Origin: a plasmid
DNA length: 5,152 nucleotides
Reading direction: 5' to 3' (one strand)
NCBI RefSeq assembly: GCF_055900595.2
Contig: NZ_JBVWEU010000009.1
Shown here: positions 133 through 5,113 of the stretch, in pieces
Numbering within the stretch: position 1 is the first letter of the stretch
Layout of the letters: each line of letters opens with the position of its first letter
Notes under the pieces: model-generated
What the model was told of the DNA's origin: nothing
The model's database searches: none
The model's input: only the letters and a program-made list of their open reading frames with translations
Translations under genes and position numbers: made by a program

Positions 133-1227
133 ATGGCAAGCTACCATTGCACAGTTAAAACTGGAGCAAAAGGCGTAGCCTTAAAACATGCTGATTACAT
201 TTCCAGATCCGGCGAATATAAAAACTATAAATCGCGGGAGGATCTGGAATTTTCTTCATCCGGTAACATGCCATCATGGGCGAAGAAAAATCCCGCAGAA
301 CTGTGGAAAGCTGCTGATGAATTTGAACGAAAAAACGGGACGGCATACCGTGAAATTGAGATCGCATTACCGCGAGAACTGACACGTGAACAACGGATAG
401 AGCTTGTTGAAGATTTCGTGCAAAAGGAACTTGGTGATCGCCATGCCTATCAGTACGCGATCCACAATCCACCAGGTGCAATTGACGGGAAGGAACAGCC
501 ACACGCGCATATCATGTTTTGCGAACGGATTAATGATGGTATTGAACGCGATCCGCAGCAGTTTTTTAAACGTGCCAACAGCAAATCACCAGAGCGGGGA
601 GGCGCAAAAAAGGCACGCTTTGGCGAGACACAACAAGAGCGAAAATCAGCCCTGGTTGCGCTACGCTCTCACTGGGCTGATGTGCAGAATGAACACCTTG
701 CGCGACACGGCCACCAGTCGCGCGTTGATCATCGTTCGCTGAAAGAACAGGGTATCAAGCGTACGCCGGAGGTGCATCTTGGTCCCGTTCGTGTTGCTGT
801 TATGAACGCTGATCAGGTTTGTGCAATTCTGGCATGGAGAAATGCGGAACGGGAGAAGCTGGAGGCCGAGAAGGAACGGGACAGCATCATTGACCTTAAA
901 ACGACCTTGAAGGAAGCGTTAGCTGAACGGGATAACATGCCACCAACCCTGGATGAGCTTGGGGCAGAATTGAAAGCGTTTGTTGAAAGCTCGTTTGATG
1001 AACTCAATGAGGTAATGCAGCTTAATTCATTGATTGACGGTGCGCTGGACACAATGATGAAGCAATTCCAGGTGGAAGAGGAGCGGAAGCTGCAACAGGA
1101 ACGACTAATTCAGGCTGCGCGAGATGAAGCCGAAAAACAAAGAGAGCTGGAGAGGGAAAGAGTGCGCCGGCGTGCGTATTCTTCACCAGCACCATCACGT
1201 TCACGCGATTATGGTATGAGCCGTTAA
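133..1227 (+). CDS. mobA: mobilization relaxase MobA (MobA/MobL family, MOBQ)
   Basis: 364-aa ORF, ATG at 133 with GGAGG at 116-120. The N-terminus MASYHCTVKTGAKGVALKHADYISRSGEY has the conserved Tyr-containing motif of MobA/MobL relaxases (compare RSF1010 MobA), and a downstream His motif (QPHAHIMF) fits the metal-binding histidine cluster. The C-terminal half is charged and coiled-coil-like (EKLEAEKER, QRELERERVRRR). It sits directly downstream of the oriT-like site. G+C is near half, typical of an enterobacterial backbone. Confidence 0.88.
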   Translation: MASYHCTVKTGAKGVALKHADYISRSGEYKNYKSREDLEFSSSGNMPSWAKKNPAELWKAADEFERKNGTAYREIEIALPRELTREQRIELVEDFVQKELGDRHAYQYAIHNPPGAIDGKEQPHAHIMFCERINDGIERDPQQFFKRANSKSPERGGAKKARFGETQQERKSALVALRSHWADVQNEHLARHGHQSRVDHRSLKEQGIKRTPEVHLGPVRVAVMNADQVCAILAWRNAEREKLEAEKERDSIIDLKTTLKEALAERDNMPPTLDELGAELKAFVESSFDELNEVMQLNSLIDGALDTMMKQFQVEEERKLQQERLIQAARDEAEKQRELERERVRRRAYSSPAPSRSRDYGMSR

Positions 1228-1248: not shown

Positions 1249-1965
1249 ATGCAATTGGATGAACATTCAAGAAAAATTGCTGCCCTTGTTGCGTATAATG
1301 AAAAGCAAATAAAAGAAATAAACAGGATAATTACTCTGCTTAATGAAAGAGTGAATGATTTAAATACCTTTACAGATACTCTTGAACGTGAAGGTAAAGT
1401 TGTATCTGGAATTTCTTATTCCTTGAGAGATAGTGTGTCTCATGTTGATTTTTATCTTAATAAAGGAATGGAAGAAGTATCCTGTAAATTACAGAAATCT
1501 GTCTCAGACACACTAACATCATTACTCCGTGAAAAATTATCTTTCACACTTAATGATGTAAGGCAAGAGTGGACTGATTTTGAAGAGCAAACAAGTAAAG
1601 AGATAAAGGAATCATTAAAGCAGACGACCAGAGATGCTGAAGTTGCGACAGGTATAATTAGAAAAATAATGGAAAAGTATACAGTAACAAGGATAGTCGA
1701 AAAGGTAATTGTGTTACTTGTGTTATTTTTATTACTAATGATAGCACCTGGTTTCTATGCTGAATATCTCAAAATGAATATCGGTTCTCTAATGGAAGAA
1801 CAGAAAAAACATGAATCTATGTTAAAAGAGTGGAAGGAAAAAGCACCATTGGCAGAGTTCTCTAAGTGTGGAGAGTATAGGGAAGCATGTGTGTTAGTTG
1901 ATGATAAAAGCGGATATTATTATGATGAACAAACTCCAAATAAAAAATATGCCATACTGAAATAG
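1249..1965 (+). CDS. hypothetical bitopic membrane protein (N-terminal coiled-coil domain, one transmembrane helix, small Cys-containing C-terminal domain); AT-rich cargo gene
   Basis: 238-aa ORF. ATG at 1249 is preceded by GGAGG at 1233-1237 and starts 21 nt after the mobA stop codon (TAA 1225-1227), with no obvious promoter in between. The N-terminal ~145 aa are rich in K/E with heptad-like spacing (EKQIKEINRIITLLNERVNDLN). One strongly hydrophobic segment (IVEKVIVLLVLFLLLMIAPGFYAEYL) follows, then a ~70-aa tail with two Cys (SKCGEYREAC) and a YYYDE motif. Codon usage is visibly AT-rich, about one-third G+C by eye, unlike mobA and rep. I recognise no family. Confidence 0.6.
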   Translation: MQLDEHSRKIAALVAYNEKQIKEINRIITLLNERVNDLNTFTDTLEREGKVVSGISYSLRDSVSHVDFYLNKGMEEVSCKLQKSVSDTLTSLLREKLSFTLNDVRQEWTDFEEQTSKEIKESLKQTTRDAEVATGIIRKIMEKYTVTRIVEKVIVLLVLFLLLMIAPGFYAEYLKMNIGSLMEEQKKHESMLKEWKEKAPLAEFSKCGEYREACVLVDDKSGYYYDEQTPNKKYAILK

Positions 1966-2120
1966 TGTTAAGTAACTCATTCCGCCTTATGACTAAGGCT
2001 GCATGAGTATAAAAACTAAAAATAAATGCCCGTACCTAAAAAATGGAACTACATATACTTATGTACCTTGAGAATGACGGAGTTAATTTATCCTTTGTTG
2101 TCAAATTTTTGACCCAAACA

Positions 2121-2160
2121 GGGGCCGCTTGGTAGGGTATCTGAACTCCAATCGGTCCCC
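2121..2160 (-). terminator. candidate intrinsic terminator / GC-rich imperfect hairpin downstream of the minus-strand cargo gene
   Basis: On the minus strand, just after the stop codon (complement of 2172-2174), the sequence GGGGACCGATTGG-(15 nt)-CCAAGCGGCCCC forms an imperfect ~11-bp stem (one bulge, one mismatch) followed by UGUUUGGGUC. It is a GC-rich island in an otherwise AT-rich intergenic region between two convergent genes. The T-tract is weak, so this is only a candidate. Confidence 0.3.
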
Positions 2161-2171
2161 TCATAATGCCT

Positions 2172-2969
2172 TTATGTATTGAATTCTAATACAGGGTCGA
2201 ATTGAAACATGTCATTAAAATAACATAGTGCTGGATTACTAAATGTAATTGGTTCTGCTTCGGTATTTAGGTAATCCAACCATTCATAATAATCTTTTTT
2301 AAATTGCGTGTATGTTTCTTTTGTCATTGGTTTGAATTGATAACCAAAAGTTGTATGAAATCTATATGTGTCATGGTTTTTATGTTTCACTCCTGTTATT
2401 TCAGCAACGGAATTTCTAAAGTTGATTAGTATTTCTTTATCTGAGTTGCTTGCAGGAATTAAAGGTATAATAAAGGCTGGTTGTTTATTATCGTCCCACT
2501 CTGGAGGTAGCGATGGTGTAGATTTTAGATCTACCTTCATTGTAACAGGTTTTTCAAATCCTATTTGTTTATTTTTAAGTGTATTTGCAATTAACTTTGT
2601 CGCTTCCTCCATGCTTATATTCGTGGGGGTGTTATAAGGCCAAGGATTTTTTCTATCGCCACTAATTAAAGAAATGATAGTCATGTGATAAGAGTTTGGA
2701 GGTAATAACACAATGCAATCACCAAAATCTCGTTGAATTCGAACCTGAATATTAAGCATTGCTTTAAATAAATTGCTGTCTTTATCTGTATGGCAGATTA
2801 CGGAACATCCTTTATATTGTGCAACCTTTCCATTGCGATAAAATTTTGCGCCCTTATCAAGACCGTTGTTTTGTGCTATTTCGCATCGATTATTTTCAGC
2901 AAAAACAGTATTAGATGTTATTGCTGCTGTTACTAATGCGGAAGATTTTATAAATGTTCTTCTGTCCAT
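2172..2969 (-). CDS. Tat-signal (twin-arginine) exported protein with 2H phosphoesterase (LigT-like) motifs; AT-rich cargo gene
   Basis: The minus-strand ORF track starts at 3029, but the preferred start is the ATG at 2969 (complement of 2967-2969), preceded by AAGGAA 7 nt upstream. It gives MDRRTFIKSSALVTAAITSNTVFA-ENN: a twin-arginine motif (RRxFIK), a hydrophobic h-region and an A-x-A-like cleavage site (VFA), i.e. a Tat signal peptide. The mature part carries two H-x-T-x motifs flanked by hydrophobics, about 110 aa apart: LLPPNSYHMTIISL and YRFHTTFGYQF. This is the signature of the 2H phosphoesterase superfamily, and the first motif resembles the PPENLH-hydrophobic-T-L segment I recall in LigT. 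G+C is about one-third by eye. Confidence 0.6.
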   Translation of the reverse strand: MDRRTFIKSSALVTAAITSNTVFAENNRCEIAQNNGLDKGAKFYRNGKVAQYKGCSVICHTDKDSNLFKAMLNIQVRIQRDFGDCIVLLPPNSYHMTIISLISGDRKNPWPYNTPTNISMEEATKLIANTLKNKQIGFEKPVTMKVDLKSTPSLPPEWDDNKQPAFIIPLIPASNSDKEILINFRNSVAEITGVKHKNHDTYRFHTTFGYQFKPMTKETYTQFKKDYYEWLDYLNTEAEPITFSNPALCYFNDMFQFDPVLEFNT

Positions 2970-3014
2970 AACAGATTCCTTATTAGTGAATGTGAGTTTC
3001 TTCTTCATTAGAAG

Positions 3015-3042
3015 AATGTAAAAAAACATAAATAAAAGTCAA
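3015..3042 (-). promoter_or_regulatory. candidate sigma70 promoter for the Tat/2H-like gene
   Basis: On the minus strand: TTGACT (complement of 3037-3042), a 16-nt AT-rich spacer, then TACATT (complement of 3015-3020). This lies about 45 nt upstream of the ATG at 2969. The alternative in-frame ATGs at 3029 and 3008 would fall inside or abut this promoter and lack a Shine-Dalgarno sequence. Confidence 0.3.
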
Positions 3043-3237
3043 ACGGTAAAAAACGCCTAGGGGCTTTCACGAAACAAACGGATTTGTACGCTGAACTTTG
3101 ACGTCACCCCGTTTGGGGGAAACTCATCAGAACGCTATATCAAATTCCCGCAAAGGACTTCTCATCCAGGGGAGAAAATTTGTCATTTTGACCCGTTCGC
3201 CGTTCTGTACGGTCGAAACCGATCGCGCATCGCTTTC

Positions 3238-3253
3238 GTGCATAGTTATGCAA
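3238..3253. promoter_or_regulatory. candidate ARG-box-like palindrome (accessory sequence of the cer-like site)
   Basis: gTGCATagttATGCAa is an inverted repeat (TGCAT / ATGCA, 4-bp AT-rich centre) resembling the ARG box half-sites TGAAT / ATTCA. It lies about 100-115 bp upstream of the XerC/XerD core, the distance at which ArgR binds in cer. Confidence 0.3.
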
Positions 3254-3353
3254 CGCGCTAAAAACGATTCTGACGCATTTTTTATGTTTACCCTGGTGTT
3301 TCCTTGTCTTTTTACGTTTTTTACGTCAGAAAGCGACTGAGGGCGTTTTAAGG

Positions 3354-3381
3354 GGTACGTACAAGAGGAGTTATGGTAAAT
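3354..3381 (+). other. cer-like XerC/XerD multimer resolution site (core)
   Basis: GGTACGTACAA-GAGGAG-TTATGGTAAAT. The left arm differs by one base from the ColE1 cer XerC arm as I recall it (GGTGCGTACAA), and the right arm is identical to the cer XerD arm (TTATGGTAAAT). The central region is 6 bp (cer has 8; dif and psi have 6). About 250 bp of non-coding sequence upstream (3100-3353) fits the accessory region. Confidence 0.6.
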
Positions 3382-3402
3382 GGATCGGGTTTGCGGGAAG
3401 GA

Positions 3403-3431
3403 TCGACAGGATTTGCCGTTGGGTGTAGTGT
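3403..3431 (+). promoter_or_regulatory. candidate rep promoter
   Basis: TCGACA (3403-3408), 17-bp spacer, TAGTGT (3426-3431). This would start a roughly 100-nt leader before the rep ATG at 3538, in line with the long antisense-controlled leader of ColE2-type rep mRNAs. Confidence 0.3.
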
Positions 3432-3439
3432 AAGCGACT

Positions 3440-3555
3440 GAAAAACAAACGCCCCTGAAATCATGTCCAGATCCGGCAAGATTCAACATGAAATACAGGG
3501 GCGAGGTCGGTCGATAACCTGGAAGGAATCGTAACACATGAGCGCCGCGCTTCAA
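3440..3555 (-). ncRNA. candidate antisense RNA (ColE2 RNAI-like copy-number control RNA) complementary to the rep leader
   Basis: A long interrupted hairpin in the rep leader: gcccctg (3451-3457) pairs with caggggc (3496-3502), and the inner arms tcatgt (3461-3466) pair with acatga (3486-3491). On the minus strand the stem is followed directly by GUUUGUUUUUC (complement of about 3440-3450), the shape of an intrinsic terminator for a minus-strand transcript. ColE2-type replicons are known to control Rep translation with a roughly 115-nt antisense RNA against the leader. The 5' end and promoter are not resolved, so the boundaries are approximate. Confidence 0.4.
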
Positions 3556-4473
3556 TACTTCGACGAAAATTTACCCCACCGTCCCTATCACACGGATGAT
3601 CTCGCTTTTGGTCTTCGCATCTCCGGCAAAGGGCGTGCGCTTCTTGCGCGGTACATACAGCAGAACCAGCCTCATGCGCAGTTCTGGCTGGTTTTTGACG
3701 TTGACCGCGAGGGGGCAGCGATTGACTGGAGTGACCGGAACGCTCCCGCGCCGAACATCACCGTAAAAAATCCTGTGAACGGTCATGCTCACCTGCTCTA
3801 CGCGCTCAATATCGCCGTGAGAACCGCGCCGGACAGCTCGGTTAAGGCGCTGAAATACGCCGCTGCGATTGAACGTTCGCTGTGTGAGAAACTTTGTGCT
3901 GATGTGAACTACAGCGGACTGATTTGCAAAAATCCGTTCCACCTGGAATGGCAGGTGATGGAGTGGCGCGAGGAAGCCTATACCCTCGATGAACTGGCAG
4001 ATTATCTCGATTTGAGCGCCTCAGCGCGTCGTAGCATCGATAAACATTACGGGATGGGGCGAAACTGCCACCTGTTCGAAATGACGCGCAAATGGGCTTA
4101 CAGGGCGATTCGTCAGGGCTGGCCAGCATTCTCACAGTGGCTTGATGCCGTGATTCAGCGTGTCGAAATGTACAACGCATCGCTTCCCGTTCCGCTTTCT
4201 CCGGCTGAATGTCGGGCTATTGGCAGGAGCATTGCGAAATACACGCACAGGAACTTCACGCCGGAAACTTTCGCACAGTATGTGGCTGATACGCACACAC
4301 CAGAAATACAGGCCAAGAGAGGCCGGAAAGGTGGTATCGCTAAAGGCGAAGCCTACGATGACAAGCGTTTCATGGCGCTATGTATGCTGGATAATGGATA
4401 TTCTCAGAAAGCTATTGCGGCGATGCTGAATGTACATCGTAATACGATCCGTAATTGGGCAATGCACAAATAG
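3538..4473 (+). CDS. rep: ColE2-type replication initiator Rep (plasmid-specific primase-like initiator)
   Basis: 311-aa ORF, ATG at 3538 with AAGGA at 3523-3527. The N-terminus MSAALQYFDENLPHRPYHTDDLAFGLRISGKGRALLARYIQQNQPHAQFWLVFDVDREGAAIDWSDRNAPAPNITVKNP closely matches what I recall of ColE2-P9 Rep (MSAVLQRFREKLPHKPY...QNQPHA...DWSDRN.PAPNITVKNP). The C-terminus has a helix-turn-helix-like segment (YSQKAIAAMLNVHRNTIRNW). The origin motif follows directly after the stop codon, as in ColE2. G+C is near or above half. Confidence 0.9.
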   Translation: MSAALQYFDENLPHRPYHTDDLAFGLRISGKGRALLARYIQQNQPHAQFWLVFDVDREGAAIDWSDRNAPAPNITVKNPVNGHAHLLYALNIAVRTAPDSSVKALKYAAAIERSLCEKLCADVNYSGLICKNPFHLEWQVMEWREEAYTLDELADYLDLSASARRSIDKHYGMGRNCHLFEMTRKWAYRAIRQGWPAFSQWLDAVIQRVEMYNASLPVPLSPAECRAIGRSIAKYTHRNFTPETFAQYVADTHTPEIQAKRGRKGGIAKGEAYDDKRFMALCMLDNGYSQKAIAAMLNVHRNTIRNWAMHK

Positions 4474-4515
4474 CCTATATCAGATAACAGCGCCTTTTCG
4501 GCGTCTTTTTGAGCA
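4474..4515 (+). other. ori: ColE2-type origin of replication (Rep binding and priming site)
   Basis: cctatATCAGATAACAGCGCCttttcGGCGTCTTTTTGAGCAg starts right after the rep stop codon (TAG 4471-4473). It matches the conserved ColE2/ColE3 ori core as I recall it (CCTTATCAGATAACAGCGCCCTTTTGGCGTCTTTTTGAGCA) with a few substitutions. Confidence 0.7.
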
Positions 4516-4569
4516 GCGGGCTTTCCGGCGGTTTTCTCCTTTCAGCCCAGCAATGGTGCGGCTTACCGT

Positions 4570-4666: not shown

Positions 4667-5113
4667 TTACGCACTGTCTTTGGTTAGTAGCTTCTTCCCG
4701 CGTCTTTCCCATTCCTGCCATTTTGGATGGTTGCGCGGTAGCTCTGCGATTCCTGCGAGTGCGCCTACCAGTTCGGCAGCACTACACTTTGGTTTTCCGG
4801 TTTTGCTGTCCACCAGTCCTGCCACAATCATGAGGCCTGCGGCCTTGTAGAGTTCATGATCCCGCGCTTTTCGTTCCGCCCTTGCGGCTGCCTTCCGTTC
4901 TGCCGCTATGATTGCCGTTACCCTGGCTTTTGCTGCGGCTGCTTTCTCTGCGGTTTTTTCTGCCCGTATCAGTGCGGATAACGTTTTTTCATCCGTCGTT
5001 GTTCGGTTTTTTTTCTCTGCCAGTAACACAAGTAATCTCTGCTGCTCTGACGGTGATTTCAGTCCGTTGATGTAGGCAATTTTTGCACTTAACCACTCTT
5101 CACGATTTGTCAT
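4667..5113 (-). CDS. mobC: MobC-like mobilization accessory protein (divergent from mobA across oriT if the molecule is circular)
   Basis: 148-aa minus-strand ORF. ATG is the complement of 5111-5113, with GAGGT 5 nt upstream. The protein is Ala/Lys/Arg/Glu-rich and helical (EKTAEKAAAAKARVTAIIAAERKAAARAERKARDHELYKAAGLMIVAGL, ELVGALAGIAELPRNHP), like the small oriT-binding accessory proteins found beside MOBQ relaxases. Its start is 39 bp from the window end; joining the end to the start puts it divergent from mobA with oriT between them, as mobC/oriT/mobA is arranged in RSF1010-type plasmids. The family call rests on position and composition, not on a recognised motif. Confidence 0.5.
   Translation of the reverse strand: MTNREEWLSAKIAYINGLKSPSEQQRLLVLLAEKKNRTTTDEKTLSALIRAEKTAEKAAAAKARVTAIIAAERKAAARAERKARDHELYKAAGLMIVAGLVDSKTGKPKCSAAELVGALAGIAELPRNHPKWQEWERRGKKLLTKDSA

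Follow-up and report, generated by a model that had tools for sequence, protein, structure and literature searches.

A conserved hairpin in the rep leader of a small Col156/MOBQ4 plasmid is probably the body of a ColE2-family antisense RNAI

The stretch of DNA analysed here (the window, 5152 bp) is apparently a whole small plasmid of the ColE2 type (Col156/MOBQ4). Its relaxase gene, AT-rich cargo segment, replication gene and TraD/MobC-like gene are listed in Table 1 together with the control features discussed below. Relatives of the plasmid are typed in PLSDB as Col156/MOBQ and mobilizable. The replicon is placed in the ColE2 family because its origin, located directly downstream of rep, matches that of pColE2-P9. 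The regulated gene, rep, encodes an initiator/primase sharing 93% identity over 261 aa with the Rep of ColE9-J. The segment 3330–3455, i.e., the 125 bp upstream of the hairpin that is the subject of this study, is nearly identical to pColE2-P9 in a pairwise alignment.

Table 1. Features of the 5152-bp window considered in this study
Feature	Position	Strand	Description
MobA/MobL relaxase gene	133–1227		Gene calls and domain search
AT-rich cargo segment	about 1250–3030		GC 0.33–0.39; 238-aa ORF without assigned function and 2H-phosphodiesterase-like gene
Non-coding stretch	between cargo segment and rep
cer-like core (Xer site)	3354–3381		70 bp upstream of the hairpin
Candidate rep promoter	3403–3431	+	TCGACA, 17-bp spacer, TAGTGT; relaxed scan and leader comparison; weak
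Predicted RNAI countertranscript	3441–3520	-	About 80 nt; 5'-AGGUUAUCGACCGACCU-(hairpin)-UUUGUUUUU-3'
Terminator U-run	3441–3449	-	UUUGUUUUU, directly after the 8-bp GC-rich outer stem
Interrupted hairpin	3450–3503	both	Outer stem of 8 bp, inner stem of 6 bp
Apical loop region	3467–3485		CCGGCAAG in mRNA sense, CUUGCCGG in RNAI; most variable alignment columns
rep Shine-Dalgarno	3523–3527	+	AAGGA, read directly; 2–3 nt beyond the 5' end of the predicted RNAI duplex
Extended -10 of the putative RNAI promoter	3528–3536	-	TGT-TACGAT; between rep Shine-Dalgarno and ATG
-35 of the putative RNAI promoter	3550–3555	-	TTGAAG, 16-bp spacer; within rep codons 5–6
rep	3538–4473	+	ColE2-type initiator/primase; PF03090 (8.7e-44), PriCT_1, C-terminal HTH
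ColE2-type origin	4478–4516	+	Directly 3' of rep; aligned to pColE2-P9: TATCAGATAACAGCGCC..GGCGTCTTTTTGAGCAG
TraD/MobC-like gene	4667–5113	-

The hairpin consists of two nested stems. The outer one is formed by two 8-nt arms, CGCCCCTG (3450–3457) and CAGGGGCG (3496–3503), and the inner one by two 6-nt arms, TCATGT (3461–3466) and ACATGA (3486–3491); complementarity is 100% in both pairs. Both of the inverted repeats described in the initial annotation of this DNA (3451–3457 with 3496–3502, and 3461–3466 with 3486–3491) are thus present, the outer pair being 1 bp longer than claimed. The U-tract which it had placed after the stem on the minus strand can also be read directly, as UUUGUUUUU at 3449–3441; the reverse complement of 3440–3450, located directly 3' of the stem on this strand, is GTTTGTTTTTC. 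Folding of the minus strand, which had been suggested as a check, yields a stable 58-nt hairpin of -27.7 kcal/mol, versus -13.6 +/- 2.7 for 200 dinucleotide shuffles (z -5.19), none of which (0/200) folds as well. For the predicted 80-nt transcript as a whole, the folding energy is -30.6 kcal/mol (z -3.78). No U-run follows the hairpin on the plus strand, and therefore it is not a plus-strand terminator. The site is missing from the output of a simple terminator scan, since that scan accepts loops of 3–8 nt only. As far as can be read from the sequence, the minus-strand hairpin would form the body of RNAI and the stem of its terminator, and the plus-strand hairpin the target stem-loop in the rep leader.

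The boundaries of the predicted countertranscript are set by a putative promoter and a terminator. Its start is placed at ~3520, since the conserved promoter motif would position initiation 7–8 nt after the -10 element (3521–3520), and its end at 3441, since there the hairpin and the U-run, i.e., the 8-bp GC-rich outer stem followed by UUUGUUUUU, provide an intrinsic terminator for such a transcript. The TTGAAG/TGT-TACGAT site is the sole minus-strand promoter candidate found in 3400–3700 by a relaxed scan. It matches 8 of 12 consensus positions in addition to the TG, which is why a stricter promoter scan, whose threshold it does not reach, missed it. Among 45 unique leaders, the -35 element, the 16-bp spacing, the TGn and the -10 element are kept without exception (45/45). 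The -10 element reads TACGAT, TAGGAT or TAATAT, TGn precedes it in all 45, and the -35 element is TTGAAG in 44/45, the exception being TTGTGT in the Edwardsiella plasmid pEI2. Part of the -35 conservation may reflect the codons of Rep, as this element lies in coding sequence. In pEI2, however, the -35 element occurs at identical spacing within a leader-peptide ORF unrelated to the N-terminus of Rep; hence, the conservation cannot be put down to coding constraint alone. The tail CGTTTGTTTTTC is likewise identical in 45/45 unique leaders, most of which were retrieved with a pattern containing that very run, so that its invariance does not constitute independent evidence. In the 11 leaders retrieved by similarity, i.e., independently of the pattern, the U-run is invariant as well (11/11).

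The predicted RNAI would begin with a 17-nt 5' tail, in which a weak hairpin of 4 bp perhaps forms, continue with the main hairpin and end in the U tail. By the same promoter/terminator rule, its predicted length is 79–82 nt in all short-type relatives, and for pColE2-P9 the rule yields 114 nt and two stem-loops. The RNAI of ColE2-P9 was reportedly found to be roughly 115 nt long by Takechi et al. in 1994, and the fit of the 114-nt prediction with this figure supports the boundaries. In the initial annotation, the RNA had been estimated at 100–120 nt, with the absence of a transcript of that size taken as refutation; given the start at ~3520, the predicted size is about 80 nt, so that this criterion would wrongly reject the finding. 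The RNA had also been assumed to overlap the rep ribosome-binding region. Its predicted 5' end is, instead, 2–3 nt upstream of the Shine-Dalgarno sequence, with neither the ribosome-binding site nor the ATG being covered, and 3521–3555 of the interval originally assigned to the element corresponds to the predicted promoter rather than to transcribed RNAI.

On the plus strand, the start codon of rep is the ATG at 3538, and the centroid fold of the free leader leaves its Shine-Dalgarno sequence unpaired. The candidate rep promoter is weak. Initiation from it would take place at ~3437 and produce a leader of about 100 nt, almost entirely covered by RNAI. Two of the 45 unique leaders (three metagenome copies) have a 13-nt deletion between the hexamers of this promoter, which makes its assignment tentative. 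The XerD-arm TGGTAAAT was also considered as a rep promoter; read as a proper hexamer, it lacks both the A of position 2 and the T of position 6. Several open reading frames overlapping the hairpin were rejected. The frame from ATG 3464 to TAA 3533–3535 (23 codons), a conceivable leader peptide, occurs in the window only; it has no Shine-Dalgarno sequence, and the frame or the ATG is lost in all other hairpin types. Minus-strand ORFs at 3127–3555 (142 aa) and 3348–3479 (43 aa) show no conserved frame, relatives having 1–2-nt indels and a 34-nt insertion.

Leaders for comparison were collected from PLSDB and by a metagenome pattern scan, giving the 45 unique leaders with 19–23 distinct hairpin variants; the metagenome scan, which used a 20-base pattern, retrieved most of the 45. 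A 16-mer scan of genome contigs returned 120 stretches, almost all of them chance matches, with only Edwardsiella ictaluri being relevant. All 23 natural variants (23/23) fold individually into a common architecture, in which a GC-rich outer stem is followed by an internal loop, an inner stem 5–7 bp long and an apical region. The inner stem changes in a compensatory manner, UCAUGU/ACAUGA in the window versus UCGUG/CACGA in most relatives, and in the outer stem of the ColE2-P9 type UG/CA is swapped for GU/AC. With plain MAFFT alignment followed by RNAalifold, the inner stem was lost owing to register shifts of 1 nt among the hairpin types. Thus, 112 copies (20 distinct sequences) were aligned by means of a covariance model derived from seven in-register variants. 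Since this alignment is fitted to the structure, its numbers lean towards the structure: standard pairs occupy 97.8% of the stem cells, versus 83.1% in column shuffles, none of which (0/500) reaches 97.8%; pairing drops to 33–51% of the cells in slid-register controls; and changes on both sides are found at 8 of the 14 stem pairs. Despite the structure-fitted alignment, the gap between the observed pairing and the controls is large. G-U/C-A asymmetries are present on both strands in the 112-copy alignment, so the covariation is silent on which strand's RNA matters; asymmetry of both strands is what would be expected for an antisense/target pair. In both the leader and the hairpin alignments, variation is concentrated in the loop and the upper stem. 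In most relatives the loop is CCGCCAAG, giving UUGGCGG in RNAI, versus UUGCCGG in the RNAI of the window. The apical loop is hypervariable and presumably represents the recognition ('kissing') part that determines incompatibility specificity.

Among the closest known counterparts of this arrangement is the RNAI of ColE2-P9 and ColE3-CA38, reportedly characterized in the Itoh laboratory (Yasueda, Takechi and Sugiyama, 1993–94). Our alignments included the pSTEC607h type of leader, from which those of pColE2-P9 and pColE3-CA38 do not differ, and the leader of the window is colinear both with this type and with that of ColE9-J. The window and ColE2-P9 share the position of the hairpin, its outer stem and the U-run, as well as a minus-strand promoter motif across the rep start. 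Their inner stems differ by compensatory changes. In ColE2-P9, an additional 34 nt containing a second stem-loop, which the window lacks, lie between the main hairpin and the rep start, and its predicted RNAI is 114 nt versus 80 nt in the window. In ColE2-P9 a GAGAG sequence lies far from the ATG, whereas the AAGGA of the window is well placed; the RNAI loop of ColE2-P9 is UUGGCGG rather than UUGCCGG, and the C-terminal regions of the two Rep proteins differ. In the alignment, the 34-nt segment is also absent from ColE9-J; therefore, the second stem-loop is a trait of a subtype and not family-defining. ColE9-J (NC_011977), which is said to belong to the set of eleven ColE2-related plasmids that Hiraga et al. 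compared in 1994, resembles the window in its short single-hairpin leader and MOBQ4 backbone type. It differs in the loop and inner stem (CCGCCAAG and TCGTG/CACGA) and in the stretch that joins the hairpin to the Shine-Dalgarno sequence (GTGTGGGTCGTAACACAC), all of another type, and carries colicin genes, which the window does not. Of the features compared as marks of membership in the ColE2 RNAI system, only the second stem-loop of ColE2-P9 is absent from the window, the putative promoter being a consensus match below the scan threshold. When the whole window was searched with Rfam models, neither ColE1 RNAI (RF00106) nor R1 CopA (RF00042) gave a match with E up to 1. As in CopA/CopT of R1, with its tap leader peptide, the predicted antisense/target duplex ends a few nucleotides 5' of a Shine-Dalgarno sequence; according to Malmgren et al. 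in 1996, the R1 duplex, immediately upstream of the ribosome-binding site of tap, reportedly blocks ribosome binding without covering that site. The R1 system differs in its leader peptide and CopB-type repressor, both absent from the window, and in the two stem-loops of CopA.

Taken together, these comparisons point to the ColE2 system of RNAI and rep leader, which is already described in the literature. We consider it probable (about 0.85) that the hairpin is the body of a ColE2-family RNAI, a constitutive minus-strand RNA of ~80 nt that limits the translation of Rep and thereby provides negative feedback on copy number. A ColE2-type antisense RNAI with its terminator hairpin in the rep leader had been proposed in the initial annotation, and the replicon type, the colinear leader, the covariation and the conserved promoter motif all agree with that proposal. 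In such a scheme, RNAI would be made constitutively from ~3520 on the minus strand, through the 17-nt tail and the hairpin, stopping at 3449–3441, and the same DNA read on the plus strand would give the rep mRNA leader, close to its 5' end, a stem-loop complementary to that of RNAI. The two RNAs would first make contact via their apical loops, CUUGCCGG in RNAI and CCGGCAAG in the mRNA, and pairing would then extend through the 5' tail of RNAI into a long duplex ending 2–3 nt before the Shine-Dalgarno sequence. Abutting the latter, the duplex would exclude the 30S subunit from the rep start, so that less Rep primase is made. As the dosage of RNAI would track that of the plasmid, the circuit would act as negative feedback, and the sequence of the loop and upper stem would decide which related plasmids are incompatible. 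This scheme is consistent with what is known of ColE2-like plasmids, in which RNAI binds the 5' UTR of the rep mRNA and prevents its translation (PMC6856555; PMC5304414), the antisense RNA being the sole control element in ColE2 (PMC5717011). In the RNAI of the I-complex plasmids, the loop and upper stem have been shown experimentally to set incompatibility specificity (PMC10724649).

The element is widespread. The region is present in 1153 PLSDB records; NZ_CP087296.1, for example, has a leader 100% identical to that of the window. Of 5426 complete E. coli genomes, 915 contain the leader region or part of it, nearly always on a plasmid, and 532 contain most of it. Near-full-length leaders amount to 578 records in these 532 genomes, i.e., 46 surplus records. 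If incompatibility depends on the loop, two plasmids with one hairpin type would be uncommon in a single cell. According to type-specific queries of 44–45 nt, the loop type of the window (A) occurs in 263 of the 5426 genomes (269 records), type C in 136 genomes (140 records) and type B in 119 genomes (123 records). Hence 6 (A), 4 (C) and 4 (B) surplus records, or 14 of the 46 in total, are of the same type, which is roughly the level of random mixing, as judged from these counts rather than from per-genome tables. Some of the same-type co-residents are copies integrated in large plasmids; strain VR50, for instance, has the small plasmid and a copy on a 97.9-kb plasmid. None of the RefSeq matches listed carries an ncRNA feature, and Rfam has no family for ColE2 RNAI.

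The only Rfam hit of the hairpin region is on the plus strand, to PK-repBA (RF01089), and its 33.9 bits (E 9e-5) fall short of the gathering threshold of 45. The E. coli relatives score 21–26 bits, and only pEI2 exceeds the threshold, with 47.9 bits. This hit leads to the alternative that the hairpin acts on the plus strand only, either as a translational enhancer in cis or as stem-loop I of an activating pseudoknot of the IncB kind, with no regulatory countertranscript. Sequences of the ColE2 leader are reportedly needed for efficient translation of Rep (Yasueda in 1994 and Nagase in 2007), which would suit such a role. By contrast, complementarity between the loop and downstream sequence, as required for an IncB-like pseudoknot, is at most 5 nt in the window, a value reached by 140 of 200 shuffles and thus at chance level, and the window has no leader peptide. 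A role of the plus strand alone also leaves the invariant minus-strand U-run and the conserved minus-strand promoter motif unexplained, and we assign it a small probability. The plus-strand hairpin as the target of RNAI does not compete with the main explanation but fits into it.

The function of the hairpin could also be that of a minus-strand terminator and nothing else, shielding the cer-like site and the cargo genes from antisense or read-through transcription that originates in rep or mobC, with the short RNA being non-regulatory. Such a terminator would indeed look like what is present on the minus strand, where a U-run comes after a GC-rich stem. Nevertheless, a dedicated and conserved promoter motif is located just ~70 bp upstream of it, and the loop and upper stem diversify while pairing is kept, which is the pattern of a specificity determinant. 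With the experimental precedent in homologous ColE2 plasmids (PMC6856555), we regard a bare terminator as quite improbable.

Covariation does not distinguish RNA from single-stranded DNA, and the cer-like core is just upstream, so that the hairpin might operate at the level of DNA, as a cruciform, as a single-strand hairpin (a primosome assembly, or ssi, site) or as an accessory part of the Xer site. Nomura is said to have reported ssi sites in ColE2 in 1991. Such a role is very improbable given that the hairpin is located between convergent promoter motifs and adjoins a U-run, that it keeps a constant position with respect to the rep start but not to the Xer core, and that IncF plasmids retain the cer-like part but lose half of the hairpin. 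Finally, a chance palindrome in the intergenic region can be dismissed, since the shuffle statistics (z -5.19, 0/200 as good) and the compensatory changes, with conservation in 20 distinct variants, refute it.

The antisense RNAI reading also invites comparison with the I-complex plasmids (IncB/I/K/Z). Their antisense RNA is a single stem-loop of 60–80 nt with specificity determined by the top loop and the interior loop (PMC10724649). The predicted RNAI of the window resembles it in being a single stem-loop of similar size. In both systems the hairpin is followed by about 20 nt, a Shine-Dalgarno sequence and then an AUG, and the loop is a variation on the UUGGCG/CGCCAA theme. The UUGGCGG loop motif of the IncI, IncB and R1 systems was reportedly described by Asano and Mizobuchi in 1998. 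The UUGGCG-type strand belongs to the antisense RNA, not to the mRNA, in the majority of the E. coli relatives of the ColE2 type, and the antisense loop of the window is UUGCCGG. Unlike the I-complex plasmids, the window has neither a leader peptide nor a distal pseudoknot partner, and its Rep belongs to an unrelated family. The window would thus work like a simplified version of the I-complex system without being a member of it, since it falls below the Rfam threshold and lacks both the pseudoknot partner and the leader peptide.

The Edwardsiella plasmid pEI2 combines features of both systems. It encodes a ColE2-type Rep, and its outer stem, U-run and promoter layout are the same as in the window. 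The top of its hairpin is an inversion of the E. coli one, with 13 nt identical to the reverse complement, so that UUGGCGG is in the mRNA. A leader ORF of 16 codons, which overlaps the TTG start of its rep, begins at an ATG aligned with the E. coli rep ATG, including that of the window, and a CCGCCA partner is available for its loop. Thus, pEI2 is an I-complex design fused to a ColE2-type Rep. The cassette of ColE2 rep leader and RNAI may, in turn, be a stripped-down relative of the I-complex module (stem-loop I, leader peptide and pseudoknot), with pEI2 as a living intermediate; we put this forward tentatively, as a conceivable kinship whose odds are below even. If true, it would mean that control cassettes move between unrelated initiator families, and that stem-mediated inversion of the hairpin top switches which RNA, sense or antisense, carries the UUGGCG motif.

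As for its identity, the element probably corresponds to the already known ColE2-family RNAI hairpin, in its short single-hairpin form and with the UUGCCGG loop variant common in E. coli. Its recognition on a small cryptic MOBQ4 plasmid therefore adds little new biology, being the re-identification of a classical determinant of copy number and incompatibility. The corrected prediction of its size, about 80 nt versus 114 nt in ColE2-P9, guides experimenters to the right band, and the catalogued variants of the loop and stems could support an RNA family model as well as sequence-based incompatibility typing of Col156-type plasmids.

The rep leader of the window (3450-3537) looks recombinant when its parts are compared with those of related plasmids. 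Its hairpin, the interrupted stem-loop that forms the body of the predicted antisense RNAI, is of the type present in pEC25-3-like plasmids, except that the outer stem is perfect in the window and contains a bulged A in the latter, whereas the segment downstream of the hairpin is typical of pKPHS4/Shigella-type plasmids. Identity to the window over the whole leader was found in one database record only, NZ_CP087296.1 (6810 bp, APEC E956). The stretch that links the hairpin to the Shine-Dalgarno sequence circulates in three or four unrelated versions, which pair in a mosaic fashion with differing hairpin types. In the prototypes ColE2-P9 and ColE3-CA38, the main hairpin and the start of rep are set further apart by an additional 34-nt segment with the hairpin CCGCGTTTCCCGATGGGAAAGCGCGG; this segment is missing from both the window and ColE9-J. 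The two prototypes also lack a well-placed Shine-Dalgarno sequence, unlike the window, which has AAGGA. Two or three ColE2-type leaders with differing hairpin types are also found on single metagenome contigs (L133, L161-L163, L166, L169, L183, L184, L199, L202, L205 and L225). Leaders of the same type are repeated on such contigs at a spacing of 3.9-6.2 kb, which equals the length of a plasmid unit and thus suggests wrap-around assemblies; contigs of mixed type may be cointegrates, or else co-resident plasmids joined by chimeric assembly.

Coordinates of features in the window and in related plasmids
Feature	Sequence	Positions	Strand	Remarks
AT-rich cargo block	window	1249-3029		GC 0.33-0.39 versus 0.47-0.56 elsewhere
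cer-like Xer site	window	core 3354-3381; upstream part about 3169-3353		GGTACGTACAA-GAGGAG-TTATGGTAAAT
Stretches matched by the IncF remnant	window	3169-3475 and 3660-4299		aligned to pSK1144 (L011) 2770-3716
23-codon ORF	window	3464-3535	+	ATG within hairpin; TAA 2 nt upstream of rep ATG
Leader with 34-nt segment	ColE2-P9 (L257)	444-557		compare window 3504-3520
Leader region	pEI2 (L010)	540-700		counterpart of window 3441-3570
16-codon ORF	pEI2 (L010)	631-681		begins at position equivalent to E. coli rep start
CCGCCA	pEI2 (L010)	653-658		predicted capable of pairing with hairpin loop
Annotated rep start TTG	pEI2 (L010)	674		overlaps end of 16-codon ORF

In the candidate rep promoter, the two hexamers flank a natural 13-nt deletion (GATTTGCCGTTGG-like, equivalent to window 3409-3421) on two metagenome contigs, L172 and L191. 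Either this promoter is misassigned, or the corresponding plasmids use a different one. The 23-codon ORF is confined to this exact leader, all other types losing the frame or the ATG; unconserved and with no Shine-Dalgarno sequence of its own, it is probably meaningless. The core of the cer-like site resembles that of cer/psi, in which a 6-bp centre separates the arms for XerC and XerD. Its XerD arm shows no variation across all relatives. A cer-like site has been reported for MOBQ42 plasmids (PMC6856555).

Classical ColE plasmids carry a colicin operon, whereas the window has the AT-rich cargo block in its place. The block contains a 238-aa ORF that includes a hydrophobic segment; on the minus strand lies a gene for a 2H-phosphodiesterase/DUF1868-like protein, the true start of which is likely MDRRTFIK..., which looks like a twin-arginine signal peptide. 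A weak match to the Rfam trpB ncRNA motif (window 1306-1412, minus strand; 29.3 bits versus a gathering score of 59, E 0.43) lies within the AT-rich ORF and is most likely due to chance.

Judging by its sequence, a dead ColE2-type replicon is present on many large IncF-type plasmids: the remnant was found on pSK1144 and, by PLSDB matches, on about 400 conjugative plasmids. The cer-like region, together with the hairpin's first half, is fused directly to rep codon 41-42, and the 184-bp deletion has removed the 3' hairpin arm, RNAI promoter, Shine-Dalgarno sequence and rep start. The alignment ends short of both the rep end and ori.

The Edwardsiella ictaluri plasmid pEI2 encodes a ColE2-type Rep, and its leader matches PK-repBA, the Rfam family of the I-complex (IncB/I/K/Z) control module, at 47.9 bits, above the threshold of 45. 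The top of the pEI2 hairpin is an inverted version of the E. coli top and therefore places CUUGGCGGA in the mRNA loop. pEI2 has the appearance of a ColE2 replicon that carries an I-complex control module.
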